Position numbers and translations under genes: made by a program
Notes under the pieces: model-generated
Told to the model about the DNA's origin: nothing
Seen by the model: only the letters and a program-made list of their open reading frames with translations
Databases searched by the model: none
Part shown: positions 22,601 through 59,707 of the stretch, piece after piece
Numbering within the stretch: position 1 is the stretch's first letter
Layout of the letters: the number at the start of each line of letters is the position of its first letter
IMG/VR virus record: IMGVR_UViG_3300008339_000021
Coordinates: 1-64,000 of that record
Strand: one strand, 5' to 3'
DNA: 64,000 bases
Source: a virus

Positions 22601-25600
22601 ATTCTTTTCAGGAGTTAATACACTGTAGTTTGAGTATCCATCTGAAAATCTATTTTGTAATTGTGCAAGTGTTGTAATTTTAGATCTAACATCTCTTGCT
22701 TTTCCTCCAGCAGCATCAACTATTGCTTTTGGCATTTCATTCATCAAATAATATAGAGGCTGTCTTTTAAAATCCTCTGCTGCAGCCATTAGTCCAATAT
22801 CATTGGACTTACTAGCTAAGTATACTAATCTTACATTATCATATATAAAATCAATATTGTATCTAGAAGCAAATGGTTTTTCTTTATTTCTAACAACATT
22901 TCTAATATCAGCACTTGTCATATCTAATTGGATACCAAGAGCTGCAAGAAACTCACCTGCTTTGTTAGGATTAAGCTTTTTGTCTAATGTAAATTCTTTA
23001 ATAACCTCATTAACATTTAAGTAATTGTTTCCACCATCCTTTTCAATAAATCTGTTGGTAACAGAATCAGCAACATTAAAGTTTGTTGTCCAATCATTAA
23101 TGATTCTATAAATATCAAAGTTAGCTGCAGCAAGTCTAGCTTCATAGATTGATTTCTCTGGTATTCTTTTACCATCAATTTGTTTAGCTTTCTCTATAAC
23201 AGTTTTATTTATATTTAATTGAATAAATGGAATAACCGGCTTCTTAAGATCTTGCCAGAAATTAGTTTCTGATTTAAACTCTGTGTTATTATTATAAGCT
23301 AAAGGTCCAAATTGATATGGGTTTGGTAATATTTCAAGAACTTGAATAAACTCAGGATAATTTTCAATTGAGTTTTTCATTCTATCATACATATCAAGAA
23401 AATCCATAGAGCCCTGTAAAGTTCTTGCTAATCTAGCCCACATTACATCTACTGGTTCTAGCATTGGAAGACCAAAGTCATCTGTTTTTACAGAGTAGGT
23501 TTTAACTCCATTTTCATTTTCTTCAATTAAATAATCCCCATTCTCATCTCTATTAAGTTGGTAGATTCCAGAAAGCATCATCATTGTATCATCAGTTGCT
23601 AACTGTTTAGCAGAAATAGAATTACCTTCTTCTGTTTTAAATAAAGCTACTGTAGCATCTTCTGTATCATCATTATAGGCATCTTTCAAAATATTAAATC
23701 TTGATCTTTGCATGTGAAATGCAACTACACCTTTATCTGTTTTTTTACTTAATGCCTCATCAACAACACCATAATTTTCCACTGCTTTCATCAAAAGATC
23801 AAGCTTTGCCATCTCTTTTTGTTCAGCTACAAAATCAGGATTTTTATTTGTGGGGTCTGCATTTGCAATAGCAATACTTTGTGCAACTTCTATTTGATTA
23901 TCAAGTAAAACATTTAACTGTTTTTCTATATTACTATAAAGTTTTTGTCTATTAGTTATATCACTTAAAAGTCTTACTGCTCCACTTGTTGTACCGTATG
24001 TAGTATTATATTTATAGAAGGTTCTAGCCATTAATGAATCCATAAGATCCACAATCTTATTAGACTGAACATCAGTAATTTCAGTAAAGTCTTTGCCAGT
24101 ACTTGTGATTGGTTGTATTGTTTTCTTTGCACTATTCAATCTTTGAAAACCAGGCATTAAGTTATGCTCAGCATTTTCAGTATCAACTGTAAAGTTTCCG
24201 GTATAAAGATTATTATAATATTCTTTTACCATTGGTATATCATACAATCTTGTTACATCTCTCTTAGTTGTTTTACCAAAGAAGAAATCAATAATCTTTT
24301 TGATTTTATTAAATATGGTCTGAATAATACCAGATTGTTTTTTACCATTTACAGCATAGTCAATAAAGTCTTCAGCTAAATCTTCTTCAATTTCTATAAA
24401 TTCTTTATTGGCCCATTTATCAAATGTTCTAATATGGTTATATAATGCTGTCTTTTCTTCTATTGTTAGAACCAACTGAGAGAATGCATGCCATGCTTCG
24501 TGATATAAAGTAATTGGTTGGGCATCTCCATATAGTTCTATTCTTGCTGCAAATCCTTCTTCTCTAAGTTTATTTGCTGCATCAGATAAAAGAGATCCTG
24601 CAGAAAGAAATGTACCATATGCTGAAGAGTTAAATACAAGAGCCAGTCTTTCAACATCTACAACACCTTTTAAAGGGGACTTATCAAACCATGCATTTAC
24701 ATCTTCCCAAGCTCTAGCACTTCCATAGAGTTGATTCATAACAGAAGCAGCTCTTTTATTTCTATCCATACCTGGAAGATCAGGTATTAAATCAGTACCA
24801 TTTAGTAAATCATCTATAGAAATTTTATTAATTTTTCTATCTTGAACTTTTTGTTGCTCTACTGTTTTAGCTGGTATAGTTGGTTTAGCAGGGACAACAG
24901 TTGATGTATCCACTGGTTGAGTAACTTTATTTGCAGCTTTCTTATAAGTTTTAGTTGACTTGCTAAGAAATCTAGATAGAAAATCTGCTTTAGTATTCTT
25001 AGTTGATTTTGAACCTGAAGCTAAATATGGAGCTTGAGTTCTTAATGCATAACCTGTAAATGCTCTAATCTTAACTGGTATACCTAATTTTTTTGCTGCT
25101 TTGATTGAAGCTTCAGCAATACCGGTTTGACCATTACTAATGATCTTAGATATTGGATAATCCTTTACAACCTCTTTTAAGATATTATAAATATACTTAT
25201 CTATTTCTGCTTGAGTGTAACCATCTTTAGCAAGCTGTGCAATATCATTACCAACAATATTTACAACATTACCTTTCATTTTAGAAAGGTTACTTACCAT
25301 TAAATCAATAGCATTTTGTGGAGGAATTAAATTTTTTGGAGCTTCACTTTTAGAACCAATTTTTAATCCATACCATTTGTTTACTGCACCAGCTCTTTGT
25401 TGTACTAATTTTTCATCAGGAGTAGTAAACTTTGTTCCTAATCCAAATACTACATCTGCTTCATTTATATTTGCTACAAGAGTTTTATCATTTGGAAGAG
25501 TAGATTGTTTAGTTTCTATTGTAAACTTTACTCCTTCTTCTTCCTCTTCTTCAACTTCTTCTTTTTTAACTTCATCTTGAGTACCATTATCTACATCATC

Positions 25601-40215: not shown

Positions 40216-43200
40216 TTATATAAATTTTATTTGACCACCTGCAGCAAGAATCTGACCTATCTCTTCTTGAGTTAAATCATATACACCACCTTGACGGAAT
40301 TTAAGTTCCCCACCTTTCTTTACAAAGGCAGCTTCACCTACTACATAGTTAAATCCTGTAGATCCTGCTCCTTGTCCTTTTGACATATTTCTTTGACTTA
40401 AACCACTATAACCACCTCTATAATCTAGTTGATTAACTGGTTCTCTACTATCAGAAGGACTTCTTGATGCTAAATAATTTGTATTGTAACTATCATTTAG
40501 ACCAGCAGAAATTCCTCTGATACCCGCACCTAAGAACTGTCCAGCATTTGCTATCTTATTTGTATCTAGTGTACGTGCCTTATTTATATCATAAGTAACT
40601 GAGAAATCTTCTGGTGTTGTATTTTGTAATGCAGAAGGTTTATAGTTAGGATCATAACAAGGACTATTTGGATTTTGTACTTCAAATTCTGTACATGGTC
40701 CTGTGATAGCTTGATTAGGATTTGTTTCTAAATTACTACTATTAGGATTAAAAGGACCTGTTCCACTAAACTGTCCACCAGGATTAAACTCAGGAACATA
40801 TCCTCCAAATTCCATATAGTTTGAAGCTCCTCCGTAAATTCTTTTAGGAACCCATTTTTTTAATATATAACTATATTTAGCAGGTGTACCATCAGGGAAT
40901 GTATTATTATTCATTCCATCATTAATAATACCTTGTTCAGTAAAAGCTTTTCTTGCATTAGCCTCTTGTTTATCTGCTTCCCAAGTACCTGTCTTATCAT
41001 TGTAGTCTACCGGTGTCCCGTCTGCAAACTGATAACCAGAAGCACCAGTAGTATTGAATATTACACCTTGATTTTTTTGTGCTTGTTCTTTACGTTGAGC
41101 TCCTGATGTAGTTTCTCTATTCCATTCTTCATTCCAGTCTGGATTACCAGTTTGATTAGTTGTATTAGTAGTCTGAGTTGTGCCTGTATTAGTAGCCCCT
41201 GTTGTGCCTGTATTAGTAGTTTGTGTAGTACCTGTATTATTTACTTGAGTATCAGTGGCTGCAGGTTGAGTTGTAGTTCCAGTTGCTGGTGTTGAAGTAG
41301 TTGATTGTTCAGGTTCAGTTACTGTTTCTTTACTAGATCTTCTTTGTATTCTTTTTTGTTGTCTACGTTCTCTTGGACTCATTTCTTCTTCAACTGTATT
41401 AGTTGATGTTGAAGTACCAGTTTGAGTTTCACGAGGATTTGGAGTTTGTAAATAATCAGGTAAACCATTACCATCAGTATCAGCGTTATATCCAGAATAA
41501 CCAGGTCCAACTGCTTCAGGATTATATCCTTCTGCAATATTATCTGCAGTTGTATTAGCAGAAGCACCACCAGCTGTTGTACCTGCATTAGGATTATTTG
41601 GATCAACCCATCTACCTGTAAGTGTCATTGTTTTTTTACCTGACCACCAAGGACCTTTCTCAAACTTATAATCATACATATAACCAGCTTGTGGCTGTGT
41701 TGCTGTACCATCAGCATTTGTACCAGCTACAGGAACCATACCTTGTAATTGACCTTGTGGTTGGAATATAGCACCACTTGCTGTTCTTGCAGGACCTTGT
41801 TGTGACATCCAAGTAAAATCATAATTACCTCCAGTAGCAGGATTATATTTAAATGGTGAAAACATATTTCTTATCTGTTGACCAATTGTTGGTGCAGTAG
41901 GATAACTATAACCACCAGTCATTGGATAACCTGCTCCATAACCATAATTATAATTTCGAGTTGTGGTAGTTTCTGTTGATGCAGGTTGTGATGTAGTACC
42001 TAATTTTCTTTGAAGAATTTGTTGATATACTGCATCATTAGGATTAGCTTCATACTTCATAAATGTAGATGCATCTGTCTTAGTCCTATTCATGTAGTCA
42101 TTATACTCAGCAAGAGCTTCTTGTTCAGCTTTTTGTTTAAGCCATGCATCATAATCATTTGTAGTTACTTGACTATTATTAATACCATCATATTTATATA
42201 GACCACCCATTCTATACATAAAAGGATCATCTACATTTTTAGACTGTATATCATTATTATCATATGCTACTATTGGAGAAATTGGTAACTCATCTCCACC
42301 ATATACAAATTTAGTTAATGTATTAGGATCCATTTGAGATGTATTTACCATTCCACCTTGTTGATAACCTAAATAGTCAGCTACTTTAGGAGCTATTTGA
42401 GTTGCAAGTCCATATGCAGGAAATGTCATACCCAATGTAAAATCGGAAACATTATTGGCTACATCTTGTGCAGCTCGTTTTCCAGCATACTGTGCACCAA
42501 GTATTTTTGCTCTATCATATCCATATTTCTTCTTTATTTCTTCCCACCATTGGGTGTACGTCGTACTAAGAATAGGGTTTTTCATTAAATCTGGGACACT
42601 ACCCAATTTATTCAACATGTCAAACTGTTGTTCCTCATCCGCTGTTAAAAACTCTAGATTTTTGTCATATATTAATTGTTCAAGTTCAGGATTAACCTCA
42701 AAAGACTTATTTGCATCTGAAGAATTTTTTGAGTTTTGTTCTTGTAGGTAATTGTCACCAAAATAATTATCATAAGAATAAAAATCATATTCAAGTTCAT
42801 CTTTAAGAGCTTTAACATATTTGTTTTCTGGTGTACCATATGTTTCTTCATATAGCTTATTCAGATTAGATATTATTGCTTCTTTTCCAGCTGTATCTGA
42901 ACTATTATATTTTTGTTTTATTCTATTCATTTCAGCTTGATAGTCAGCTTCAGAATAAGTTGGCGATGCAACTCCAGTAGCAGGAGCACTGGCAAAACTT
43001 TTAGGTGTAGTTGTAGTTGTAGTTTTAGCTTTAGGTGTGCTTGCTGCAAACATTTTATTTATCTCAGCTTGTACTTGTGCATAGTTTTCACCTAATGCTG
43101 CTTTTCTTGCAGCACCACTACCATACTCTCCCCTAAGTGTTTTCTGAACTTCTTCACTTAAGTTAAATGGTATAGTTTCAGTATTAGCTCCTACAGTTTC

Positions 43201-44841
43201 AGTAGCAGCAGGTATTATTTCTGTTCCTGTAATAGGTGCTGTTTCAGTAATAGTTTCTGGCATAGGACCAGTACCTACAGATTCAGTTCCAACTACTGGT
43301 GCTGTCTCAGTAGGAATAAAATCAATTAGCTGTGTTCCAGAAGGATTTGTTTGAGTTGGCATGAAATTTTTATTTCCTGCTCCGAACATCCATGGAGCTT
43401 GAGCAGCAGCAGCTCTTCTTCTTGCTGCTTCTTCTGCTGAAATTGCTTCAACTTCATTTCCTTGTTCATCATATACCATTTCAGTTCCTTCAGGAGCAGG
43501 ATTTAATTCCATATAACCTGCATAGGGTTTAATACCACTATTTTTAAGAATTGTTGCTTCATCATTTTTAGCAGGATCTGCTGCAGCATTTAGTACTTGA
43601 GATTTTGTTCTTATAACTTCACCAGGAAATGTTCTAGTTGTATTCCAAGAAGAACCATAACCCATACCCATTGGCATATATCCATAACCAGGATTCATAC
43701 CAGCTAACATAGCTGCAGGTATACCTTTAGCAGACCATTCTCTTGTGCCTTTCCACCATGGTCCTTTTTTATACTCTAAATCAATAAGTGGTCCTGTTTG
43801 ACCTGACATAGCTCCAGCAGTCATTTGAGGATTAACTATTTGAGGAGATACCACTTGAAGATAGTTTGGTAATCCCGGTACTCCAGCATATCCAGCTGCC
43901 ATATCCCCAAACATGTTTTGCCAATCTCTTGCTACTCTACGAGTTTGTCTATCAGCTTGTCTTTGTTCACGTCCTCTTCTTGCTTCTGGCAAGTTTTCAT
44001 AACCTGCACCATGTACTTGATTCATAGGTTGTTTAAAAATATTTGATACTGATCCTGAATAAGCTTGAAGATGATGCATTGGATTTTCTATATCTTGCTG
44101 TTCCATCTGCATTCCCTCTTGTGCCATAGGCATCATTTGGTTATTCATTGGAGGTAAGGCACTTGTTTCTTGTTGTAACTGTTTAGTTTTATCATAAATT
44201 TCTTTTGCATAATACTCATTACCAAGATCTTTTATACCTCTTCTAAAATTATTAATGTGTGCTTGTCTTCCATTTGGAGAATCTAATATTGTAGAATTAC
44301 TAGATTCATCTTGCTGCATTCCTTCTGCAGCTTTTTTTAATCCTCTTACTATATTTTTGACAAACTTTTTCTTACCAATAGTTCCTCCTTTTCTTTCTAC
44401 TGATAATGCTTGTTCATCTTCTGCAGCTAGATCATCTTCACTTTCTTCACCAAAGTCATCCCAGCCTGTATCATCATCAGATATCCATGGTAAATCAGTA
44501 TCATAGAGTGGTTTTTTAATAGGAACAATATCTTCAACTTCTGCATCTTGAGAAAGCATTTCATTCTTTGTATCATTAACATCTTGTCTATACAAAAATT
44601 CAACTACTTTTTCTACTCTATCTAGAGCATCAAAATAACCAAGACCATATTTATCTTTTAAGGTATCAGCAATCATCTCTACATCTGTAGTCATTGTTAA
44701 TTGATCTAGTATATCTTGTTCTAAAGCTAAATCATTAACTTGCATACCGGCCTGAGCCTTTTGTAAAAACTGGGCTGTCTTATTAATATATTGTCCATTT
44801 CCTCCTGGATCTTTATATATTCTTACTTTTCTTTTGTTCAT
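40216..44841 (-). CDS. Large low-complexity virion/cargo protein (1541 aa) with a CW_7-like cell-wall-binding repeat
   Basis: T/G/Q-rich linkers. VQKTLRGEYGSGAARKAALGENYAQVQAEINKM matches the Cpl-7 CW_7 pattern. Two KGPWW repeats and a DTDGNGLPDY Ca-binding-like loop. Confidence 0.7.
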   Translation of the reverse strand: MNKRKVRIYKDPGGNGQYINKTAQFLQKAQAGMQVNDLALEQDILDQLTMTTDVEMIADTLKDKYGLGYFDALDRVEKVVEFLYRQDVNDTKNEMLSQDAEVEDIVPIKKPLYDTDLPWISDDDTGWDDFGEESEDDLAAEDEQALSVERKGGTIGKKKFVKNIVRGLKKAAEGMQQDESSNSTILDSPNGRQAHINNFRRGIKDLGNEYYAKEIYDKTKQLQQETSALPPMNNQMMPMAQEGMQMEQQDIENPMHHLQAYSGSVSNIFKQPMNQVHGAGYENLPEARRGREQRQADRQTRRVARDWQNMFGDMAAGYAGVPGLPNYLQVVSPQIVNPQMTAGAMSGQTGPLIDLEYKKGPWWKGTREWSAKGIPAAMLAGMNPGYGYMPMGMGYGSSWNTTRTFPGEVIRTKSQVLNAAADPAKNDEATILKNSGIKPYAGYMELNPAPEGTEMVYDEQGNEVEAISAEEAARRRAAAAQAPWMFGAGNKNFMPTQTNPSGTQLIDFIPTETAPVVGTESVGTGPMPETITETAPITGTEIIPAATETVGANTETIPFNLSEEVQKTLRGEYGSGAARKAALGENYAQVQAEINKMFAASTPKAKTTTTTTPKSFASAPATGVASPTYSEADYQAEMNRIKQKYNSSDTAGKEAIISNLNKLYEETYGTPENKYVKALKDELEYDFYSYDNYFGDNYLQEQNSKNSSDANKSFEVNPELEQLIYDKNLEFLTADEEQQFDMLNKLGSVPDLMKNPILSTTYTQWWEEIKKKYGYDRAKILGAQYAGKRAAQDVANNVSDFTLGMTFPAYGLATQIAPKVADYLGYQQGGMVNTSQMDPNTLTKFVYGGDELPISPIVAYDNNDIQSKNVDDPFMYRMGGLYKYDGINNSQVTTNDYDAWLKQKAEQEALAEYNDYMNRTKTDASTFMKYEANPNDAVYQQILQRKLGTTSQPASTETTTTRNYNYGYGAGYPMTGGYSYPTAPTIGQQIRNMFSPFKYNPATGGNYDFTWMSQQGPARTASGAIFQPQGQLQGMVPVAGTNADGTATQPQAGYMYDYKFEKGPWWSGKKTMTLTGRWVDPNNPNAGTTAGGASANTTADNIAEGYNPEAVGPGYSGYNADTDGNGLPDYLQTPNPRETQTGTSTSTNTVEEEMSPRERRQQKRIQRRSSKETVTEPEQSTTSTPATGTTTQPAATDTQVNNTGTTQTTNTGTTGATNTGTTQTTNTTNQTGNPDWNEEWNRETTSGAQRKEQAQKNQGVIFNTTGASGYQFADGTPVDYNDKTGTWEADKQEANARKAFTEQGIINDGMNNNTFPDGTPAKYSYILKKWVPKRIYGGASNYMEFGGYVPEFNPGGQFSGTGPFNPNSSNLETNPNQAITGPCTEFEVQNPNSPCYDPNYKPSALQNTTPEDFSVTYDINKARTLDTNKIANAGQFLGAGIRGISAGLNDSYNTNYLASRSPSDSREPVNQLDYRGGYSGLSQRNMSKGQGAGSTGFNYVVGEAAFVKKGGELKFRQGGVYDLTQEEIGQILAAGGQIKFI

Positions 44842-44904: not shown

Positions 44905-47900
44905 TTCTTCAATTACTGTATAACCTTTTCTGATGTAATCTTCTATTTCTTTATCAGTTAATTCCATTTCTAAAAAGTTGGAATCCCCACCAAATTGTTT
45001 TTTATTTGTAGTACCTTGATTCATTTGATAATTTGGATCAAATACAATTTCATCATTTATTACAGTTAAACTTACAGGTGGCATCACCCGCCCATTTTTT
45101 ATTATAATCCTTTCTCCAGAAGGCCATACTTGAGCTTTAGGATTATTATATATATACCTTCTAGCAGTTGGATAAAGATCTTTATCATCTGTAAACAGCT
45201 CATAATCAATACCTCTATCAATTAATTGTTGTTCTGTTTCTGTAGGTATTTGACCTGCATAGTATATTCCTACAAGAGCTCCAGTTGCACCAACTGCAAG
45301 TCCAACATTTTGAAGTTTGCTTTTAAATTTGTTTTTTTTAACTTCTAAAATTTGTCTTTCATTATATATTTCAGATGCTCTAGTTTGTAATTCTTGTATT
45401 CTTTTTTCTACTGCATTATATTCAGTTTGTGCTCCCTTTGTAAATTTATTTATAAGAGCCTCTTGTTGAGCAATTAAAGCATTATATTCATTTCTTATTA
45501 AACTTAATCTAGTATTTGCGTTTATTATTCCATTATCTATTATTGAATTAATTTTATTAAAATCATCAATAGTTGATATTTGTGAAGAAGTACTAGCTTT
45601 ATTTGCTATTAAACTTTCTAATTTTTCTTTTCTTTGGAAACCTGATTTTGGAGCGGTATGATATTTCTTATATGAATATAGCATAGAGTCTACTAACTCA
45701 TCAAAGTTTCCAAACAAAGATGCATATTGAGATCTTGATGCACCATATGTTGGTGTTGCTATATCTGCATCTTTTGCAATAGCTCTTATCCCCATTGTTT
45801 CAGCCATTTCATCTAATGCAAGTTTACCTTGAGTATAGTCAGAATCAGCAATTATTAAATTTAATATATCTCGTGATTCTTTAATATTGTCAAGTTGATA
45901 TTTATACTGTGGCAAATATTTAAGAAAAATTTCTTGTACCTGTTTAGCTTCTTCTGGAGTATATACATATGTACCACTAGTTGCCCTATTAATAGATTTA
46001 ACATATGCTTCAGGATTAGATATATCAGTTTTAATACCAATTTGTCTATGACCTATAATAGCATTTTCTGTGTCATATACATGTATAGGATTTCCTTTTC
46101 TTACTGTATTTAATCCCATTCCATTTAGTGAGCCTCCTCCAGCGGCAGGATACCATTCAGTTAATGCATTTTCTATAGTTTTAACTTTGTCAGTTGTTAG
46201 TGGTAAATTGTGCGGACTAATTTCTCTTGTGAAAGTAGTCATGTTGATATAATAGTCATTCAATGCTAATTGCATTCTAGCAGGATCATTTGCTACTCTA
46301 ACTACATCATCACCTTTAAAACCCATTGCTATTAAAGCATCCATGTTCTTTGCAGGATCAGAAAGGTCCTCTACTTTAAATTGATGCCCTAATGTTGCTT
46401 TGTGACCTGCTATAGATTTAATATATGCTTCTTGACCTTTAGCTACTACTGCAGGATCACCATATTCTATTAATACATCTGGTCTTACTATATGTTTTTC
46501 TTTTGATGATTTATAACTACCCCATTTTGTTAATGGTGTTGCCTCATATGAATCTATTACTGTTTTTACTTTAGAATCAATACCATTCATAAATTCTTCA
46601 GTAGACATATTAATTTCAATAGGCTTTCCTGTTTTAATTGATTCAATTGAAGCTTTTTGAAATTGTTCAGGATAAAATTGTCTAAACAATTCAACCTCTA
46701 AAGAAGTTTCTTCTTGTGTATTTACATCTTTTCTCCATACTGGTTTTACTGTTCCATTAGGATTTTCATGTACTATATTAAAATCTAATGTTCCTTCTTG
46801 TCCATATTGTGGATACACAGAATGTTGTTTGGCTGGACCATAATCTTGAACAAAAGAAAATTTATCTTTTACATTTTTATTATAAGCACTTTCACTTATA
46901 AGAACATCTATGTCACCAGTAATATGTGGCATACCAGCTTCAGTTACAAGAACACTTGAACCAAATACTTTTGCTCCTGGTATATCAGTTTCAACTTTTT
47001 GTTTTGAATTACTTAATGAATTAACATATTCTTGAGATATAACAGGTTCATTAGTTGAAGCATCTTTTACAACTAATTCACCATCTTGTATACTATATTT
47101 TACATCTACTTTTGGTAACTCAACTTGAGCTTTTATTTTTTCCCCAGTGCTAAAATCTGTAACCACTTGCTCACCAGTAGTTACAGCACCTTTATATATT
47201 GAAGGTTGAGTTTGTTCTAAACCTTCTCCTGTTTTTACAAAGTCTTGTTTTATCTTACTATATTTATTTATATCTTGTTGCCTTTCATACATTTTTCTTG
47301 ACTTAGGTATGAGTCGGTTTTTATCTTCAAAATAGTTTTCAAACTTTCTTTTCTTAGTATTTAATAATTTACCAAGTTCCTCCTCTCTTGCAAGTAATCC
47401 TTTTTTACTAGGATCTACAGCCCAGTCATCCGGCCAGACACTTCCAAGTTCCTTTACTAATTCATCATGTTCTTTAGCTAAAGCTTTAATCTGATTATTA
47501 AAATAATTTACTTTATTTACTGTGTTTAATGCTTTTAATCCTTTCTTACCATAATCAGACATTAATGTTCTTAATTGATTAGGTATTTTTATTTTTGGAT
47601 TTCTAGATAGAAAAGCTGCTAGGATCATAATTGGTGCTCCAGCTTGTGTAACATTTCCATCTGTCTGTTCTTCATTAGCTAGACTCAATGTTGTTGCAAC
47701 TCCTCCTGCTATAATTGGCAGAGCATTAATTACATTTTTTAGTATGCTAAAGTTCTTTGGATTATTTTCCATTATATCATATAGTCTTAAAGGATATTTT
47801 TCTCCTTTTAGATTTTTATAAGTTTTATAATGTTCTCTTAGCATATCTATGGTGATAGGGTCATACTCATTTTTTAGTATTCCTTTATCCAACATGTCTT

Positions 47901-50900
47901 GTCTTATCTCTGCAACGAATGGAACTTTTTCTGTACCCTTAGAACCTGTATTAAAATACTCTAATGTCTTTTCTAGATAGTTTGGATTTGCAGTACCAAA
48001 TAATGAATGTGCTTTTGATTCTTCTGAAACAACTTCCATTCCTGGAATCTCTAATTGTTTTCCTGCTGATTTTCCACTAACTAATTGTAGTTCTTTTAAT
48101 TGCTCATCTAAGTATGTTATATTAGCTTCTTTATTTGCAAATGATCCTAGATAATGACCAAGTTCATGTGCAGTAACTTTTTTAAGATCTCCTGCTGCAA
48201 ACTTATCTCCACTTACAAATAATTGATTGTCTTTCATTCCATAGAAACCAGCCTTATCTCCAAATATTTTTTCTGTTTCTGATATAGCAGTATTAACAGA
48301 ATTTAATTCTGCTTCTAAAGGGTCAACTAAATTTTTATAATCTTGTGTTGACATCTTACCTTCATCATAAAAAATAGTAAAATAATCTATTTGATCTTCT
48401 AAACTTTTTCTTTTATTTAATTGGTTGCCATAAACTTTATTTAAATTATTCATTGTAGACATACCCTCTATCAAGGTTTCTGGTGTTTGTCCAGCTAATG
48501 ATGGAGTATTGTCAATCATTAACTGTAATCTTCTTTTGCCTTCTTCAGTTTGCCATAACTCAATTTTGTTATTTCTCATGTCATCAATGACATTGGCAGC
48601 AATTTCATTATCTGATTTATTTACTATTTGTTTTGCTTGAGTTGAAATTGATTCTTGAGATACTCCTGTGGATTGTGAAGCTTTCCATTCTTTAAACATT
48701 TCTGCATCTTTTGCAGTACCTAATGGAAGAACTTGTTCTGGCTCAAATGCTACATATGTATTACCACCTTCTCCCTGAAACATGTCTCTACCTATTACAC
48801 CATCTGCTCCTTCTAATCTAGCTTCTGTAGGTGTAATAAGATTTGATCCTAAACCACTTCCTCTAAACTCTTTAGCTTTATCAGTAAACTCATATGATTG
48901 ATCAAGGACTGTAGGATTTTCTAAATTTAACAAGACAGGTTTTCTTGTCCCTTTCATTTCCTCTAATTCATATAACCATCCTTTATCTTGTGTTGCATAG
49001 AATGGTCTTCCACTTTCAGCAAGAACTTCATCTCCTCTATTAACATGATAAAGAATATCCTGTGCTGAACTATTAGGAAATGTTTGTCTTAAATACTCAG
49101 CATATTCATCTGCCGTACCAATTTTACTTAACTCAGGATAACTATTATATATGGATTCAATTTCTGGAGTAACACCTGAAACTCCTGCAATGCCTAGTTG
49201 ATCATCTGCTGTAGTTAATGCTTGTTCTTCTGCAAGAGCTTGATCAATATTCAATGGTTGTCTAGTTGTGTTAAGTCCTTCAACTGTTCCAGAAACTTCT
49301 TTTATAGTTGCCTTCTCTGTATTTAATAAAACATATTCAGGTTGACCAAAAAGATTTGTACCTTCTATATAATCATAACCTTGTTTTTGGAGATCTTTAA
49401 GTACTGATTGTTTTATTCTTTCCATAGAACCCTCATACTTATATCCTTTAGCATTTGAGGGAAGTCTAATTTCATGTAGACCACCATTTGGATTTTCTCT
49501 AGCATATTTTAAAGCCCAAGATCCTTCTTCAAGATCTGGTGACATATAAAAGCCTGCATAACTTCTACCTTTTTTATTTTGTCTTTGAGCTAATCTTAAT
49601 GGGTCTATATCAGCTACTGTTGCATTTTTATCAAGACCTCCGTGATAGAAAACTATATCATCAGTATTTTGTGTTATTGTATTCTGATTAAGAGGATCAT
49701 ATGATTTAGCAACTTCTTTATATTCATCTGGTAATATAAATTCTTTTTCAGGCTGTCCTGCAAATGATAATGCTGCTGGATCATTTTTAACATTATATTC
49801 TTCTAATTTTGAAAATGGTACTTTAGTTTCTAAATATACCATCTCATTTGCTTTATCAATATACTGACCAGTTACTGGATCAAACACATATGTATTAACA
49901 GCATGTGGTGCACCCCTTTCTCCTACTTTTTGTGTACTCCACCATTTACCAGCTGTATTCTGAGGAAAAAATGAACCTATGCGTTCTACACCATTTTCAT
50001 CTACATATCTTATTGCAGCTGGATCTTGCATAGCCTCTGCTATTTCTGATTCAGACATTTCAGCTACTGGTCCATAATCCCAATTATTATACTCATTAGC
50101 AGTTTTACTTTCTGAAGGTAAATATCCTGGAATTTCACTTCTATATAAAGAAACTTCAGTATCTAATGTTTTTGGAATATTTTCATATACTTGAGCAGCT
50201 GTTTTGCCTTCATTCAAAAGAGTGTTAATGTTTGCACCTATATATCTGCTATTATTTGTTAAGCTTCCAATATTACTTCTCATTATTTTAAATTCACCAA
50301 GATTTGCATACTTAGTAAATCTATTTAATGGGTTTGTTAAATTAGTAAATGCTTCAGTTGCATTTCCAATATTTGGATTACCCACAACTAAACCACTCTG
50401 TAAGGGTGAATTATATAAAAATGAATAATTACCTGATGTAGGTAATACACCGAGACTACCCGGCTTTCTAAGTTCATTAATTGCTTTAAATGTATTTGCC
50501 GCAGGTTTAATAAGTGGTAAAACACCTAGACCTCCCCATAGTAAATTTTCAAATCCTTTAGCATGATCTCCTTCTGAAAACCCTTCATAGGCTTGTTGAA
50601 TATGTCCTTGTGGTTTTAATGCTTCATATGCAAAATATGCATTAAGAGCATTACCTCCTGTTAACCATGGTAGAGATTTAATTGGTGCATAAGCTAAAGC
50701 TCTTGATGCTCCTATAAGACCTAAACCTCCCATAGCAATTGTTCCTGGTAGATTATAAAGAAATGAACTTTGAAAATCCTGCATGTTGTCAGCAAGCATT
50801 GCTTTCTCATATTTATCAGCTTCTTCTTGAGTCATGTAAACTGTTTGCCCAGCCATCTCATCTGGGGTAACAAATTTTGTCAATTGTTCTCCTGTTATAG

Positions 50901-52530: not shown

Positions 52531-54158
52531 TATTTTACGATTTCAAATGTATAACCTAGTTTTTCTAATTCTAATTTAGTAGCTTCATCTACTTCATCTC
52601 CTATATCATATTCTCCTCCTGATTGCCATTTAGTTAGTCTTGGAATAGAAATATCTTCTACTACATAACCACCCTTTACATATTGATCAATTTCATTTTG
52701 AGTAAGTTCAGTTTCAATAGGTGTTGGATTGGTTCTAGCTTTTTCTTCTAGCTCTTTAATTTTTGCTCCATATTCCATCTCTGGAGAAAATCTAGATACA
52801 TAAGCAGTTCTTCCATTACCTGGTTTCATTCCAGACCACATACCTACATTAAAATCAAAGTCTGATGCCCTACCATTGCTATCTACATAGATAGGTTTTC
52901 CATCTTCTCTATAATGGGAAAATGTCATAGCATGGGAAGTACCCGGTCCCTTAATATTTATTATATCTCCAGTCTGTAGTAATCCTTTTTCTTGTGCATC
53001 AAAATCTGGGTCAGTTGTTTTAGTTACTCTTTCAAAAGGTACAGTACCTTTATTTACAGCATTAATAAATTTATCATTTGACTCAAATGCAGTTTTAGAA
53101 ACATCACTAAACTCAGGCTCACACATCCAACCTGATCCTGCAGCCCACATACAGTTTGCAGGATTAGGCATTCCCAATCTACTTTCTAAAGTTGGTACAC
53201 CTCTGTTTTTCCAAGCAGTTGCTGCACTCATGCCTTTACCTTCTTCTGGATAAACATCATATATAACATCCCATGCTGTATCTACAACTTCTTGTGGAAG
53301 GTATCTTCCTCTATCCAACATTTCTTGGATCTGATCTGTTTCTAAACAACGTCCTTCATCAACACATAATGTTTCAGTACCTGTTACTACATCTGATATC
53401 TCTGCTTCTTTTTTAACTGGAATCTCTGGAAATTCTTTTTGCTCAACAATACCTCTCAAATGATATGGTATAGGAACCATATAATTTGACATTGCATTAT
53501 TAGTTTTATCTGCAGGTGCAGCATCTGGATTTTGTTGTCTCCATATATAATAGTCCTGAAGCATATTCTGCATGTAATTATAATCTTCAGGCAACCATTG
53601 TGTAGGTTCTCCTATTTGAGTTTCTGCAGCTTTAATTTGCTGATCCCATTCTTCTGGGGATTCTGGAAAAACACCGGGAATATATGTAGGTACTATTTGA
53701 ACAGGTGATACATCTCCACCACCTTGAAAGTACATTGCTTGTGGATCATAGATCTTTTTCTTATAGTTCTTCTTTTTGAATAAAGGATTCTTTTTAAATA
53801 AAGAGTTCTTTTTACTTTTTGCAAATATTCTATTAGTGGCTAATAAACTTTTAGAATACTTTTTACTACCACCTTTCTTTGCTTCTTCTAATGGAACTTC
53901 AGTAACTACATTTGTATCAAACTGATGCATACCGGAATATGGAGAAAGAACTTTTCCATTTGCCATAATAGGCACTCCTGTATTAGACATATCAATTGTA
54001 CCATCCTCAGTATAGATATCCATTGACTGTTTGTTTCTAAATGGAGAATCATCTCTGTATCCCATTTTAGAATTATAATCAATGTCTCTTTTCTTAGCCG
54101 GCTTTTTTGCTTTGTCTAAGTTTTTTAAAGTTTCTAAAAGTAACTTCTTGTTATACAT
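52530..54158 (-). CDS. Virion protein with an NlpC/P60 (papain-like Cys-His) peptidase/amidase domain
   Basis: ANCMWAA (Cys), then LQTGDII...GTSHAMTF (His) and YVDSNG. The N-terminus has a GYRDDSP...VTEVPL module and a Lys-rich segment. Confidence 0.65.
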   Translation of the reverse strand: MYNKKLLLETLKNLDKAKKPAKKRDIDYNSKMGYRDDSPFRNKQSMDIYTEDGTIDMSNTGVPIMANGKVLSPYSGMHQFDTNVVTEVPLEEAKKGGSKKYSKSLLATNRIFAKSKKNSLFKKNPLFKKKNYKKKIYDPQAMYFQGGGDVSPVQIVPTYIPGVFPESPEEWDQQIKAAETQIGEPTQWLPEDYNYMQNMLQDYYIWRQQNPDAAPADKTNNAMSNYMVPIPYHLRGIVEQKEFPEIPVKKEAEISDVVTGTETLCVDEGRCLETDQIQEMLDRGRYLPQEVVDTAWDVIYDVYPEEGKGMSAATAWKNRGVPTLESRLGMPNPANCMWAAGSGWMCEPEFSDVSKTAFESNDKFINAVNKGTVPFERVTKTTDPDFDAQEKGLLQTGDIINIKGPGTSHAMTFSHYREDGKPIYVDSNGRASDFDFNVGMWSGMKPGNGRTAYVSRFSPEMEYGAKIKELEEKARTNPTPIETELTQNEIDQYVKGGYVVEDISIPRLTKWQSGGEYDIGDEVDEATKLELEKLGYTFEIVK

Positions 54159-57100
54159 TATCTTGGAGAATATTGTGTTTTTGTATTTACTATTTTTAAG
54201 ATCATGTTTGTATCCCTTGAGTTACTCTTAGATAGTTTTAGAAAATTAATATAATGCCTAAACTTTTTCCTTTGTAATTCAGGTTTAGCATAATCTAAAT
54301 TTAGTAAATTTAATACTTTATCATATCCATTAGGTGCAGTAACCCAAATGTTTCTATCTTCATAATTTCCTAAAAGTACAGTAGAATCTGGACTTGGAAA
54401 ATATGGTCCAGGTGCTGGAGGATATGATGACCCAATTGGAAATTCTCCTCTATCTTTAGTTATATCCCAAAATTGATTTATTCTATACTTGTTTTCTTCC
54501 TTAGAGTAAAGTATATCATAACTAGCTTGATTAGATCCAAGCTTTGGAAATTGAAGAGATAATGGTATATCATTCTTTGGATAAAGATTTAAATTCAAAT
54601 ATCCTGATACTTGTTCTGTATTATGTATTACAGCCTGATCAAAATTATAATCAAGAATATGGAACTGATCTATACATAAGTTTCTATCTCTTCTGTAGCA
54701 CTCTAAATAGTATTCAATACTTTTTATAGTATTAATCATCTGAGCAGTAACAACTGGTAATTCAATTTCAAATGGATATTGTACACCATAGAAATTACAA
54801 TAGTCATTACAATATGCACTGTGTTTCCATATACCATCTACCTTAGTTGTTAAGAATGTTCCTTTACTTGGTATATAGAAATTAGGATGCCAGTCATGAA
54901 AACTAATCCAAAATTGTAATTTAGGGTCATAACTTATTGTCCATGATGCATCAGTAAAGTATTGTGGATTTCCTAATTTAAATTTATTGTATCTAGTTGG
55001 TTTACCATCTGGACCAAATGTAACTGGTATCATAAAGTTATCATAGAAAGAATCATAGATAACTTGATTTTTATATTCATCTTTTAATCTAAAATCTCTT
55101 TTAGAAAAATATAATACACTATTGTCATTATCATAACTTGCCATGCAAGATATACCAGCAACTGGATTATCTGTGTGTGGATAATTAGGGAAATCCTCAA
55201 GTAGTTTGAATGGTAAGAATTCACTGAACCACCATTTCATTCCATCTTGTGATATCTCTGTTAAGCCTTCTCTGTAGGAAAATACTTTACCCTGATTTTG
55301 TGAAATATAATAAAGTCCGGCTGGAGTTGATACTACACCATATTTATTTTGAGATGATCCATATTCATATGGTTTTTCAGCTACTACTACATTTTGAGGA
55401 GCTTGTTCAAATAAACCTCCATCTCCAACAGTAACTTTAGTTCCACTATCATCCAATTGTATAGAATCAACACCTTGATAAATTAAAGGACTGTCATTTT
55501 CAAATGTGATAAATAAACCTGTCTTAGCAAAACTTTTTACTGAACTAAGTTTACTTTTAAAGTCTACTTTATTTAAAGGCAAAAATGTTCTCCATGCATC
55601 TATATTACTTGCATCTTGTTGTTGTAAAGAATAGGTTACTCTATTAGGATAAGTTACATAACATAACTCAGCAATATTTGGATCATATGAAACACCCTGA
55701 AGATATCCTGCTGTAAAATACTGATTAAATAAAAATCTAGATGCACTTAAACTAAAGTCATATGCATAGAAATTTCCTTTTGTAAGAATTTGTGGATTTG
55801 AATCAAACAAAGATGGAAGATCAGTATAGTTATATTTACTATATGGTCTTTCATAATCAAATGTTCCAACATCTCTAAAATCAACTAGTACTTCTGACTC
55901 AACAAAGAAATCTCTAATTCCATTTGCAGATGTATAAAAATAAGAATCTTTTACTCCAAATATGCCTGGATAAATTAACCATGAATTATTTGAAATACTA
56001 TAGTATACATTATCTAAATCATAATAACTTCTAGGCAATAATCCATCTCCATAATCAGGAGTACTCTGAAACATATCAAGAATATTTTGTAGATTAAAAT
56101 CACTAATATCCCATGGTTGACTATTAACTTGAAACTTTGGTTCAGGAATCATTTGATTTAAGAAATAATTCCATTCAATATTATCTGGAACATCATACAA
56201 CCATTCATAAAAGAAGTGCATGATGTTTTTTTCTGTAAACCTATTTATATAGGTATCTCCACCAAAAAATACTGGAGTATATAATTTTTTTTGTGTAAAG
56301 TTCTCAATACTACATGTATTACCAAAACTTGTAGAGCTTAATGTATTTGCTCCACTTGTAGCTTGAAAATTAATTTTTTGTTCACATGGTGTTGCTACTA
56401 CTTGTTGTATAGTATCAACTTGTCCATATTGATTTTCAATTCTGTATTTTAGACCAACATAGTGACTAGCAATATTATTTATAAAATTATTTGATTTACC
56501 AGTATCTCTCCAATTTATTTTATTTGGTGTAAAAGCACTTCCACCTGGAATACTAGCAAGGGGGTTAAATGTTCTAATTGCATAATTTAAAGTCATAAGA
56601 GATTGATCTATACTATCTCCATTTCCTTGTAATAAATAATGAGGACCCATACTAGTTCCTGTAGCATTTCCTCTTTTAGTTCTTACTACTGCTAACTTAG
56701 GTCTTTTAATATTATTGATTGTATATTTTTTAAGATTTCCAGAACTATCAATAAATTCAGGCATAGCTTGTAATTGATCATATACATATATACCTTCTTC
56801 CATTACAAATCTTTTATCAAAGGAGTCATTAGGTTTTACAAATCTCCAGTAATCTCCATGACTTACCATCTCTAATGCATATTGTCTTTTTCTTACAATA
56901 GCATAAATTGTTTCTGTTGCTAGTTGTGCACCTTCAACAAAATAAAATAATAACTGACCACCATTGCTTATACCACCTAAGAAGTTATTAATTGTAGGTC
57001 CAAGCATTTCATAACCAGTATATGTTTTATCATATGTTGGTGTTGTAATATATTTACCATCTTGAGCAACTTGCTCATATGTAGTTTTAAATAAATTTTC

Positions 57101-59707
57101 AAGTGAAGTACCACCAAAAAATGTTTCAGTAAAAGCACCACCTGATGACAAGTATGTATCTAATTCAGATTGGAAATTACCTGGTGCATTAAATAATGTA
57201 TTATAAGTATCATCATAATATGTTTGACCACCAACATTATTTAAGAATGTAGGATCACCTTGACCTTGTTGATCATAGTTATCTCCTGTAATACTTGTAT
57301 TAATATTACTTGGTGTAGTTGTGATTGAACCACCAGCTGTAGTCCATACACCATTGGGACCATTGATTGTGTTGGTTGCAGCACCACCATCAATTTTTAA
57401 TTTAGCTTCAAACTGTGGATCAAAGTTACCAGCAGGGTAATTAATTTTTAATTCTCCTAATCCTTTTAAGATAGCGTTTATAATACCAGTTGCTAAAGCA
57501 AATGGTATAATTTTATTTGATAAAAGTTTAAACTTAGGATGCTTGCTTGGCTCAATAAAATACTGCAATGCTTCACCTTGTACACTACCATATATTTTTA
57601 ATTCAGTAGCTGACAAATAAGGATTAATAAAACTTGTATCAGGTGAGTGGAATGAAACTATATCTGTCGGTATTGTTTGATTAACCTTATCATTTTCATT
57701 ATCTCTTACTGTAATATAAGGATCATTATATAAGTAATTATAATCATTTGGATTTGTAGTATTAAGAGCTGGAACAATACAGTTAAATGGATAGTTAGCA
57801 TATAAACCAGTAACACCAGCTTCAGTAGCACTTCCTCTTGGATTATAATCCCGGAAGTTATTGATCATCCCTTTAGCTAGAATGCTTTTATTACCATGTC
57901 TTGATCCTCTTAGTATTTCATATCCAACTATACCTGGTATATCATTACCATCATTATCTTTAGGGAATATAATATTCTTAAAGTCTACTCCCATCAGTCT
58001 AATAAAATATTCACCATTTGCTTTTTTTACAAAGTGATGAGTACTATTTCCTGTAGCATTATCAGGAAACCTATGATGTCTTATTGGTTTTCCACACAAA
58101 TCATAATTTGGATCTGTTGTTTGTGTCCAACATTGTGAACTTGAATTCCATACATTAGGTTGATAGTCTGGATAAACTTCAGTAGATTGCCAGTATCCCA
58201 TTTTACCTCGGGATATTACAGTGCCTCCATCAGGCAATACACTTGTTGTTGTTGAAGTTATAGTAGCTGTATTAACACTTTGGAAAAACATTGTGTCTCC
58301 AGGAAGAGTTACTCCAGTTTGATTTGCAAATGGTGCTAATTCAAAAATTGAATTTCCATTATATAAATAATTTTGTGGGGGTCTTCCCGGAATATGATAA
58401 GATGCTGACTTATCTCCTGTATTATATACCCAACGGATGAAAAAAGAATATACCTCATCTCTTAAATAAGATGTGTGTTTTCCCCCATCTATATAGTATC
58501 TTTCAGGATACTCAACACATACCCATTCTGTTTGAATTAGATTTGCTAATGGTTGATAATTAAAATCAAATTTAGAAGTTGGTCCTATTCTTAATAGATA
58601 ATTATTTACATCTGTCATTTGAGCAGATTTCTCAAATACAGGATTCTGTAAAATTAATTCTTCTACAGGAACCGTTACAGTGGTTTCAGGAATTTGATCA
58701 AGTACAATATTTGTTGTTCTTGTAGAATAGTATCCAATTCTTTTTGCACTTAAGTTTTGATCTATAAATCTTACAACTACTAGTTCAAATTCTTTAAAGT
58801 GCTCCGTATCTGCATCTACAGATATCTCAAAGGAACCCCTCTCATTTACTGAGTTAAATACAGGTTGTATATAACCAATAGAAAAATAATTTGTAACTCT
58901 TTGTCTATCTATTACATAAGCTGCTAATACTCCATATGATCCATTTTCTAATACTCCCTGTTGTTCAGATAACCTTAAATCAAAACAAGGTGTCTTAACT
59001 AAAGATGCTAGTCTTATTTCTTCACAGTTTAGTTCATTATATGGTTTACATATTACACAAGGTGTAGGTTCATTGGAATTTTCTGTTTGACATTTTTCTT
59101 TCCATGCTACACCAGGCCAAAGTAACTTATTTGCTGTACCGTTACCATAATAGTTTATTGTTGTAGAACCAGGAGCTCCTCCTAACCAAACATAATCATC
59201 TGGTGGCCAAGTTTTGGGATCTCCAATATTTAAGTATCTATCTGGATTTAAATTATCAGCCCAGTACACTTGCCATGTACAATCATCTTTTAATTTACTA
59301 GCTCCAGTAATTAAATGTAACTTACTAAAGTTTAAACAATGATCTTGTACAATAGGTCTATACTTACATAAGTCTGATTCAAATAAACCTATCTCAGAAT
59401 TATTTGCTTTTGTATCAAGTGCATCATAACCTACTGAATATATTACCCACTTATCACTAAATAAATGTATTGCACCAATTATATAAACAAAAGGTGAACC
59501 CATTGTTTGTCCAGCTCTAGCACATAAAGCATTTGATTCCTCATTAGATAAAGTGCCAAGATCCCCCTCTGCAGTATTATTCACAGCATTGCGGGCATGT
59601 GTCCACATTCCCTCCTGTACAAATAATGGATCTGCATCTCTGTTTAACCCTTTTATAAATGAGTTAGTCTGAAGGGATGATGTTTCTTGTTGAGCTTTCT
59701 TTGCCAT
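54158..59707 (-). CDS. Tail muzzle / stabilisation protein (P22 gp10-like, crAss type)
   Basis: 1849-aa beta-rich protein with N-terminal FIKGLNRD...NAVN...GTLSNE, YLRDEVYSFFIRW...SYHIPGR and WISFHDWHP motifs. It follows the ring-protein genes. Confidence 0.75.
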   Translation of the reverse strand: MAKKAQQETSSLQTNSFIKGLNRDADPLFVQEGMWTHARNAVNNTAEGDLGTLSNEESNALCARAGQTMGSPFVYIIGAIHLFSDKWVIYSVGYDALDTKANNSEIGLFESDLCKYRPIVQDHCLNFSKLHLITGASKLKDDCTWQVYWADNLNPDRYLNIGDPKTWPPDDYVWLGGAPGSTTINYYGNGTANKLLWPGVAWKEKCQTENSNEPTPCVICKPYNELNCEEIRLASLVKTPCFDLRLSEQQGVLENGSYGVLAAYVIDRQRVTNYFSIGYIQPVFNSVNERGSFEISVDADTEHFKEFELVVVRFIDQNLSAKRIGYYSTRTTNIVLDQIPETTVTVPVEELILQNPVFEKSAQMTDVNNYLLRIGPTSKFDFNYQPLANLIQTEWVCVEYPERYYIDGGKHTSYLRDEVYSFFIRWVYNTGDKSASYHIPGRPPQNYLYNGNSIFELAPFANQTGVTLPGDTMFFQSVNTATITSTTTSVLPDGGTVISRGKMGYWQSTEVYPDYQPNVWNSSSQCWTQTTDPNYDLCGKPIRHHRFPDNATGNSTHHFVKKANGEYFIRLMGVDFKNIIFPKDNDGNDIPGIVGYEILRGSRHGNKSILAKGMINNFRDYNPRGSATEAGVTGLYANYPFNCIVPALNTTNPNDYNYLYNDPYITVRDNENDKVNQTIPTDIVSFHSPDTSFINPYLSATELKIYGSVQGEALQYFIEPSKHPKFKLLSNKIIPFALATGIINAILKGLGELKINYPAGNFDPQFEAKLKIDGGAATNTINGPNGVWTTAGGSITTTPSNINTSITGDNYDQQGQGDPTFLNNVGGQTYYDDTYNTLFNAPGNFQSELDTYLSSGGAFTETFFGGTSLENLFKTTYEQVAQDGKYITTPTYDKTYTGYEMLGPTINNFLGGISNGGQLLFYFVEGAQLATETIYAIVRKRQYALEMVSHGDYWRFVKPNDSFDKRFVMEEGIYVYDQLQAMPEFIDSSGNLKKYTINNIKRPKLAVVRTKRGNATGTSMGPHYLLQGNGDSIDQSLMTLNYAIRTFNPLASIPGGSAFTPNKINWRDTGKSNNFINNIASHYVGLKYRIENQYGQVDTIQQVVATPCEQKINFQATSGANTLSSTSFGNTCSIENFTQKKLYTPVFFGGDTYINRFTEKNIMHFFYEWLYDVPDNIEWNYFLNQMIPEPKFQVNSQPWDISDFNLQNILDMFQSTPDYGDGLLPRSYYDLDNVYYSISNNSWLIYPGIFGVKDSYFYTSANGIRDFFVESEVLVDFRDVGTFDYERPYSKYNYTDLPSLFDSNPQILTKGNFYAYDFSLSASRFLFNQYFTAGYLQGVSYDPNIAELCYVTYPNRVTYSLQQQDASNIDAWRTFLPLNKVDFKSKLSSVKSFAKTGLFITFENDSPLIYQGVDSIQLDDSGTKVTVGDGGLFEQAPQNVVVAEKPYEYGSSQNKYGVVSTPAGLYYISQNQGKVFSYREGLTEISQDGMKWWFSEFLPFKLLEDFPNYPHTDNPVAGISCMASYDNDNSVLYFSKRDFRLKDEYKNQVIYDSFYDNFMIPVTFGPDGKPTRYNKFKLGNPQYFTDASWTISYDPKLQFWISFHDWHPNFYIPSKGTFLTTKVDGIWKHSAYCNDYCNFYGVQYPFEIELPVVTAQMINTIKSIEYYLECYRRDRNLCIDQFHILDYNFDQAVIHNTEQVSGYLNLNLYPKNDIPLSLQFPKLGSNQASYDILYSKEENKYRINQFWDITKDRGEFPIGSSYPPAPGPYFPSPDSTVLLGNYEDRNIWVTAPNGYDKVLNLLNLDYAKPELQRKKFRHYINFLKLSKSNSRDTNMILKIVNTKTQYSPR

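Follow-up and report, generated by a model that had tools for sequence, protein, structure and literature searches.

What kind of domain lies near the C-terminal end of a 2542-residue phage protein, and what could it do for the phage that encodes it? The window analyzed here comprises 64,000 nucleotides of the IMG/VR virus record IMGVR_UViG_3300008339_000021 (90,205 bases in all, estimated completeness 76%), and the protein is the product of one of its giant open reading frames (ORFs). An earlier inspection of the letters and translations, henceforth the sequence-only reading, had picked out in this protein a divergent Pol-beta nucleotidyltransferase (NTase) motif. Using sequence profiles, structure prediction and gene-neighborhood comparisons we find that the region is best explained as a genuine Pol-beta-fold NTase domain, most likely catalytically competent, which forms the N-terminal half of a 541-residue constant C-terminal core of a predicted cargo protein encoded by crAss-like phages of an environmental lineage. 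Judged on sequence conservation and modeled structure, we give this reading a probability of about 0.6. Coordinates are collected in Table 1.

An NTase signature conserved across a family of large proteins

The strings on which the sequence-only reading was based, AKVFGSS...GDIDVLI and GTLDFNIV, map respectively to residues 1853-1878 (window positions 46897-46974) and 1913-1920 (46771-46794); the span that it had assigned to the domain, 46450-47010, corresponds to residues 1841-2026, and the protein length that it gave is correct. A complete hGS-DxD-D set is indeed present, with GS at residues 1857-1858, DID at 1873-1875 and the third carboxylate at D1916. A strict pattern for the first motif (h-G-[SG]-x7-20-D-h-[DE]-h) matches the protein at a single place. 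When the residues of the protein were shuffled 2000 times, 255 of the shuffled sequences had at least one match, a frequency that would suit a chance motif in a domain unrelated to NTases. Since shuffles so frequently contain the pattern, the motif alone is not significant; it carries weight because it is conserved across homologs.

For the conservation counts a profile was made from the 49 proteins recovered by a word-indexed search (see below), and 188 domain hits from 185 homologous proteins were aligned. Both G1857 and D1873 are retained in all 172 hits covering these positions, and S1858 in 170 of 172, the other two having glycine. The position of D1875 is occupied by aspartate in 167 and glutamate in five of 172 hits, and that of D1916 by aspartate in 162 and glutamate in four of 173, with seven hits displaying another residue. 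Thus, the sequence-only reading's assignment, which would have fallen had the catalytic aspartates varied, finds all five signature positions near-invariant in the family. Across the profile 21 of 540 positions are at least 93% conserved, and six of these are the NTase signature together with H1869 (162/172). Further near-invariant residues are P1954 (173/173), D1993 (176/176) and K2012 (172/176); conserved residues of the helical lobe include K1989, D1993, K2012 and H2013.

The sequence-only reading had also presented this as the second NTase of the protein. That part did not hold up: strict and loose patterns run over the 2542-residue protein and seven other giant ORFs recovered only low-complexity or terminal chance matches and no other credible GS...DxD motif, and a six-frame search of the record for the NTase families PF01909 and PF08843 gave no match at E-value <=10.

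Predicted fold of the domain

AlphaFold2 models are confident both for the domain alone (residues 1826-2050; 33-row, more divergent alignment; mean predicted local distance difference test score 92.9, predicted template-modeling score 0.89) and for the whole 541-residue module (34-row alignment; 90.8 and 0.91). In the model the order of elements is helix, strand, GS, helix, strand starting with DxD, helix, hairpin, helix, strand with D1916 and then the helical lobe, which is the arrangement of a Pol-beta NTase with an inserted hairpin. The F-G1857-S1858 tripeptide is placed after a strand (1854-1856) at the start of a helix (1858-1864), as the hG[GS] motif is in NTases; D1873-I-D1875-V stands at the start of a strand (1875-1879), as does the [DE]h[DE]h motif of the second strand; and D1916 lies on a later strand (1914-1920) in the position of the third carboxylate. 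The modeled alpha/beta core also superposes on solved NTases.

In a Foldseek search of the PDB with the domain model all matches listed (ranks 1-49) are NTase-fold proteins by title, including MenT1 (probability 1.00; template-modeling (TM) scores 0.43/0.49) and TM1012 (E-value 4e-3). The best E-values come from CD-NTases (CdnE, 2.7e-4; CdnG, CdnC and CdnD, ~3e-3), as would be expected if the domain made a second messenger or, as suggested by the sequence-only reading, a decoy signal directed against cyclic-oligonucleotide-based (CBASS-type) defense. However, the TM-scores of these CD-NTase matches are just 0.21-0.30, and no CD-NTase Pfam model matches the protein or 33 family members, which makes such a role very unlikely.

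VIA-align, run against 48,161 representatives and against the top 1000 chains from Foldseek, matched the model to ANT(2'')-Ia (score 6.6-7.1; 144-153 of 174-176 residues aligned; root-mean-square deviation 5.0-5.6), MenT1 (6.7-6.8; 140-147 residues), LnuA (6.3-6.7; 137-138 of 158), TM1012 (6.3; 126 of 156), a Paracoccidioides NTase-like protein (6.0), MenT3/TglT (5.5-5.8), the JHP933-like protein 4ok0 (5.2-5.5) and, over the N-lobe, Pol X (6.0). Among the structural matches only NTases align across both lobes. Structure prediction and comparison, which the sequence-only reading had proposed as the check on its assignment, therefore point to a Pol-beta-NTase-like fold.

The structural matches also include terminal uridylyltransferases, poly(A) polymerases, CCA-adding enzymes and Pol X, and so bear on the proposal that the domain acts on the phage's own nucleic acids, either tailing or capping early transcripts of a co-injected virion RNA polymerase or modifying the incoming DNA end. 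The matches spanning both lobes are nevertheless small-molecule and tRNA-toxin NTases rather than processive tailing enzymes, no RNA-binding domain was identified, and phage crAss001, discussed below, lacks such a module although a virion polymerase is packed in its particles. We regard this proposal as distinctly unlikely.

Relationship to known NTase families

At the level of sequence the domain stands apart. Pfam searches with the whole 2542-residue protein at E-value <=1 found no model covering it, and the 33 family members gave nothing relevant at E-value <=0.1 except one weak match to PF22600 (1/33, E-value 0.019). The sole PHROG match of the protein is phrog_32895 at residues 955-1093, with none over the module; no NCBIfam model matches the module; and among PDB sequences phmmer found no hits and a profile search two chance-level hits at E-value >1. 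The PF01909 (NTP_transf_2/MNT) model itself hits neither the protein nor the 33 family members.

Profile-profile comparison provides one link. With hhalign the 173-row alignment of the NTase domain matched 29 PF01909 members from Bacteroidota-class genomes with an E-value of 1.1e-4 and a probability of 56.6%, placing FGS on FGS and DiD on DID, with four extra residues between the two in the phage family. As a negative control, the second half of the module gave 1.0% against PF01909. The two true NTase families AbiEii and PF01909 scored 1.4% against each other, so the method is conservative, indeed insensitive, between true NTase families. Consistent with this link, the third-nearest named cluster in a protein-language-model search (score 0.92) is a viral one with PF01909 on 33% of its members, and other NTase-labelled clusters score 0.81-0.82. 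With the profile match falling exactly on the first motif, the signature correctly placed on predicted secondary structure, its five residues near-invariant in 185 proteins and every two-lobe structural match an NTase, a chance motif becomes extremely unlikely.

Two memberships were tried and rejected. Against 28 AbiEii (PF08843) members hhalign gave a probability of 0.6% over 17 columns around DxD, and no PF08843 model hit was obtained; the ANT(2'')/LnuA family is likewise set aside, with no Pfam family at E-value <=1 and 8-11% identity in the structural alignments. By the models tested the domain belongs to none of the PF01909, DUF1814, CD-NTase or ANT/Lnu families.

The differences extend to architecture. 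ANT(2'')-Ia, LnuA and TM1012, none of which is linked to the phage domain by a sequence model, are free-standing proteins of ~160-180 residues with small-molecule acceptors, whereas the phage domain is embedded in a 2542-residue protein and, unlike them, is followed by a conserved part of ~280 residues. The MenT/AbiEii toxins (DUF1814, PF08843) modify tRNA 3' ends, while the phage domain has no antitoxin partner; DUF1814 proteins are described, in the relevant passage of one study, as having C-terminal motifs III and IV (PMC7450476). PF01909, the only family with profile-level sequence similarity to the phage domain, comprises minimal NTases, compared to which the phage domain is twice as long, has the helical lobe and carries the above insertion between GS and DxD. 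Closer in setting are the polyvalent proteins of mobile elements surveyed by Iyer et al. in 2017 (PMC5512222): as far as the accessible passages of that survey go, they too place an NTase in a multidomain protein beside zincin-like and ART-like regions, of which the phage protein has putative counterparts, and the nucleotidylating effector role proposed for them is the one proposed here. The same passages report Pol-beta NTase domains in conjugative elements only, with phage-type polyvalent proteins carrying RelA/SpoT instead (PMC5512222). In our assessment the NTase family is new and so is its setting, and the domain would work like a small bilobal Pol-beta NTase.

The domain is half of a larger conserved module

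The word-indexed search with residues 1790-2330 recovered 49 proteins at E-value <=1e-3 among 8000 scored candidates of 1398-4449 residues. Nearly all of them span the 541-residue stretch in full, with identities ranging from 94% down to 28%, and the position at which the module starts varies widely, from 409 to 2298. When 1.84 billion representatives were searched exhaustively with HMMER, 159 proteins matched at E-value <=1e-3, 136 at <=1e-10 and 77 at <=1e-30; short fragments aside, these are likewise large proteins. The conserved unit is, on these alignments, larger than the domain of the sequence-only reading: a 541-residue module with invariant polar and basic residues in its second half. 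There N2062 is conserved in 169 of 173 hits, R2102 in 173 of 173, G2137, G2139 and N2141 each in at least 170 of 172, and R2300 in 129 of 130.

With the whole-module model, the alignments to ANT(2'') and MenT1 reach model residues ~499-514, suggesting that parts of the second half may pack where the C-lobes of these enzymes lie. Searching the BFVD with the same model gave weak matches to ADP-ribosyltransferase (ART)-PolyVal-like predicted structures (TM-score to target 0.44-0.45, E-value 6e-3 to 6e-2) and to a Burkholderia phage Bp-AMP4 protein and an 'LPD' protein (E-value ~1e-3). An ART identity of the second half was not borne out, there being no ART among the 50 PDB matches listed and less than 1% probability in hhalign comparisons with the protein's own ART-like regions. 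The second half also showed no profile similarity to the protein's zincin region, and the Atlas offered no family lead for it (best score 0.75).

Gene-neighborhoods place the module in a predicted crassvirus cargo protein

Two genes upstream of the 2542-residue ORF lies a gene with a match to the crassvirus muzzle protein (crAss_MUZ), and by this match the phage is crAss-like. Being the second gene after the muzzle gene, within the block directly downstream of it, the ORF occupies the position of crassvirus cargo genes. In crAss001 cargo proteins are the products of the genes that follow the muzzle gene. They are packaged inside the tail and capsid, and the relevant passages of the structural paper by Bayfield et al. 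(2023) propose that they are ejected ahead of the DNA in a partly unfolded state (PMC10172136). From these proteins we infer packaging in the virion and ejection for the 2542-residue protein, which is most likely injected into the host by the phage. As described in the same passages, crAss001 gp45 and gp46 also resemble it in lying directly downstream of the muzzle gene and in having a predicted hydrophobic helix (PMC10172136). The crAss001 cargo-block proteins differ in size, being 534-842 residues long, and gp44-gp47, gp49 and gp50 contain neither a match to the module profile (full-sequence scores <=0.8 bits) nor the motif.

The association of module and muzzle recurs in related phages. A search of IMG/VR with the single protein yielded 12 pattern matches, none of them confirmed; with the alignment as query it yielded ten loci encoding the module at 31-59% identity. 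A crAss_MUZ match above the cut-off is present in seven of the ten records, the other three being 28-59% complete. In all ten loci the module gene is the first to third downstream of an ORF of 1660-1850 residues, or of one cut by the end of the locus, and the same succession of large ORFs comes after it. Nine loci extend to the end of the ORF, and in these the module ends ~190-280 residues before the C-terminus, with ORF lengths of 969-2383 residues. The regions upstream of the module recur rarely in the 185 proteins: the zincin region accounts for 42 hit rows and the three ART-like regions for 21, 3 and 14. As that set was gathered by searching with the module itself, these counts cannot show the module to be ancestral. 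Together, the alignments depict the module and the following tail as the constant part of the cargo protein and the N-terminal domains as its variable part. The sequence-only reading's suggestion of an independently acquired NTase does not fit this picture, in which the module is the constant C-terminal core across ten related loci rather than an add-on.

Beyond IMG/VR, a search of 185,579 prokaryote species, each represented by a single genome, recovered a sole module-bearing contig, of 21.8 kb, in a Cytophagales metagenome-assembled genome; the contig also has a muzzle gene and is probably a binned phage contig, offering a weak hint of Cytophagales hosts. That assembly has two contigs with crassvirus muzzle genes, one of them being the contig with the NTase module. 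A tblastn search of 50,697 GenBank phage records, a set from which close kin of the window genome were possibly excluded, gave no match to the module at either E-value <=1e-5 or <=5. The ejection protein of cyanophage A4 was considered as a homolog and rejected: A4 gp26-gp29 have neither a module-profile match nor the motif, and the available passages of the A4 paper make no mention of an NTase.

Flanking hydrophobic segments and predicted topology

The sequence-only reading had predicted membrane helices at about 47700 and 45280. Hydrophobic segments do lie at both places, and the three most hydrophobic 15-residue windows of the protein (2409-2423, 1627-1641 and 1604-1618) fall in them; as membrane helices they are less convincing, being short and Gly/Ala-rich with 19-residue Kyte-Doolittle means of only 1.71 (1600-1618) and 1.23 (2410-2428). 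A downstream segment is present in 94 of the 120 homologs with enough sequence, at a median of 77 residues after the module (controls: 8 of 73 windows), and an upstream segment in 73 of 137. The segments are Gly-rich with GxxxG-like runs (GLGxxGxGxxxGG in homologs), as would be fitting if helices packed against each other in an oligomeric membrane channel.

The 20 residues preceding the downstream segment have a net charge of +2.0, as against +0.29 for the 20 that follow it; the charge is higher before than after in 64 of 95 homologs, with seven ties. The cluster representative that is 100% identical to the window protein has values of +4 and -5, and along the upstream pair the flanks have charges of +2, -3 (acidic loop) and +5 (basic exit). 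By the positive-inside rule for membrane protein topology, this bias would place the module on the cytoplasmic side, which is the only side with nucleoside triphosphates (NTPs). Tethering of the NTase module to the membrane by these segments, weak as they are, is plausible.

A constant core of a cargo protein flanked by Gly-zipper-like hydrophobic segments might be expected of a component of the ejection machinery with a structural or pseudo-enzymatic role, in which an NTase-derived fold serves packing or channel assembly and the acidic residues bind a stabilizing metal; the NTase-fold pseudoenzymes NF90/NF45 are indeed among the Foldseek matches. Yet pseudoenzymes usually lose GS, DxD and D, and here at least 96% of the 172-173 hits retain each of the five positions, down to ~25% identity. 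The lack of a counterpart in A4 gp26-gp29 also speaks against this idea, and we consider it quite unlikely.

Other features of the protein and its neighborhood

Upstream of the module a HELGH motif marks a putative zincin region, and an HExxH motif occurs within 500 residues upstream of the module in 39 of 137 homologs. A sub-threshold match to PF18760 supports one of the ART-like domains named in the sequence-only reading; no LPD or MPTase Pfam model hit the 2542-residue protein. This protein has only two cysteines. The 1541-residue ORF at 40216-44841 contains a Pfam CW_7 repeat, a peptidoglycan-binding motif, at residues 568-597 (43051-43140 (-); E-value 1.9e-7, above the cut-off), and the next cargo gene has a weak PHROG amidase match. 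In a 3605-residue ORF (16673-27490 (-)) phrog_10774 matches residues 673-818 (E-value 1.6e-13) and PF01982 (CTP-dep_RFKase) residues 2011-2092 below the cut-off (E-value 1.8e-4); no RNA polymerase model in the libraries used matched it.

Table 1. Features of the locus, with positions in the 64,000-nucleotide window
Feature	Position	Strand	Basis and remarks
Predicted multidomain cargo ('polyvalent') protein, 2542 residues	44902..52530	(-)	Second gene downstream of the muzzle gene; ORF list and translation
Predicted crassvirus muzzle protein gene, 1849-residue ORF	54158..59707	(-)	Pfam crAss_MUZ, E-value 1.6e-33; also matches PHROG virion structural proteins
Conserved module, residues 1790-2330 (541): NTase domain and conserved second half, predicted compact unit	45541..47163	(-)	Homolog coverage; AlphaFold2
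Predicted Pol-beta-fold NTase domain, residues 1826-2050: alpha/beta N-lobe and helical lobe	46381..47055	(-)	AlphaFold2; Foldseek/VIA; hhalign to PF01909
Motif I, F-G1857-S1858-x14-D1873-I-D1875-V	46903..46965	(-)	GS after strand 1, DxD at start of strand 2
Third carboxylate, D1916, on strand TLDFNIV (residues 1914-1920 of model)	46783..46785	(-)	D/E in 166/173 hits
Second half of module, residues 2051-2330	45541..46380	(-)	Near-invariant N2062, R2102, G2137-x-G2139-x-N2141, R2300
Two short Gly/Ala-rich hydrophobic segments, residues 1600-1618 and 1627-1642, acidic loop between, basic stretch after; possible membrane hairpin	47605..47733	(-)	Kyte-Doolittle
Gly-rich hydrophobic segment, residues 2409-2428, ~80 residues after module	45247..45306	(-)	Kyte-Doolittle
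HELGH (HExxH) motif, putative zincin region upstream of module	48154..48168	(-)	Motif located in sequence
ART-PolyVal (PF18760), residues ~1185-1267, candidate	48730..48978	(-)	Sub-threshold: E-value 1.9e-5, 21.6 bits against cut-off of 31.2

A proposed mechanism

Taking the domain to be an active NTase in the constant core of a cargo protein, we propose the following sequence of events. As proposed for the crAss001 cargo proteins, the virion would contain the protein and extrude it into the host before the DNA. The hydrophobic segments on both sides of the module may then insert into the inner membrane, leaving the module on the cytoplasmic face with access to NTP and Mg2+. There D1873, D1875 and D1916 would hold two metal ions and G1857-S1858 the triphosphate. 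The helical lobe and the second half (K2012, R2102, GxGxN and R2300) would bind an acceptor, and a hydroxyl of this acceptor would receive the nucleoside monophosphate. Candidate acceptors are a host RNA 3' end, as in the case of MenT, a protein, or a small molecule such as those modified by ANT(2'') and LnuA. As the structural neighbors are split between small-molecule O-nucleotidylyltransferases and tRNA-end NTase toxins, we do not choose between these acceptors. The large conserved second half and the context of conflict between phage and host make us lean to a host macromolecule, whose modification early in infection might blunt translation or defense.

Several observations weigh against the reading of the module as an active, membrane-associated NTase delivered with the virion. 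The domain has no Pfam, PHROG, NCBIfam or PDB sequence match, and its hhalign match to PF01909 spans only 27 columns. The spacing of 14 residues between GS and DxD is one above the classical 9-13. The flanking hydrophobic segments are short and weak, as their Kyte-Doolittle means indicate, and the charge bias around the downstream one is reversed in 24 of 95 homologs. Finally, crAss001, the source of the packaging and ejection analogy, has cargo proteins without the 541-residue module. These points are included in the probability given above for the active NTase in a constant cargo core, which remains our preferred explanation.

One could go further and envisage the NTase module as an obligatory enzymatic part of a lineage-wide crassvirus entry apparatus, anchored in the inner membrane beside the DNA channel and nucleotidylating a host component, such as tRNA ends or a defense or membrane factor, in the first seconds before phage gene expression. 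This wider proposal is on present evidence unlikely, if less so than the alternatives discussed above. If true, it would describe an 'enzymatic ejectosome' tethered to the membrane, the large acceptor-binding half of which would have an as yet unrecognized fold.

Implications

Crassviruses are among the most abundant phages known, and the cargo proteins that they package are believed to do their work ahead of phage gene expression. To our knowledge no chemistry has been assigned to these proteins apart from that of the virion RNA polymerase. A search of the main texts of openly available papers turned up none that describes an NTase in the cargo proteins of crassviruses or the ejection proteins of podoviruses; in the literature on crAss-like phages, NTases and virions, judged mostly by title and the start of the abstract, the one checked passage concerns a CCA enzyme. 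A conserved and probably active NTase in the cargo core, as predicted here, would supply a concrete biochemical function for protein ejection in crassviruses. It adds to the NTase superfamily a family covered by no database model, and extends Pol-beta NTase domains to what is presumably a phage virion protein. In addition to their DNA, these crAss-like phages may deliver enzymes that are ready to work, and if the acceptor should be host RNA or a defense factor, this would constitute a new mechanism of pre-emptive take-over or counter-defense.

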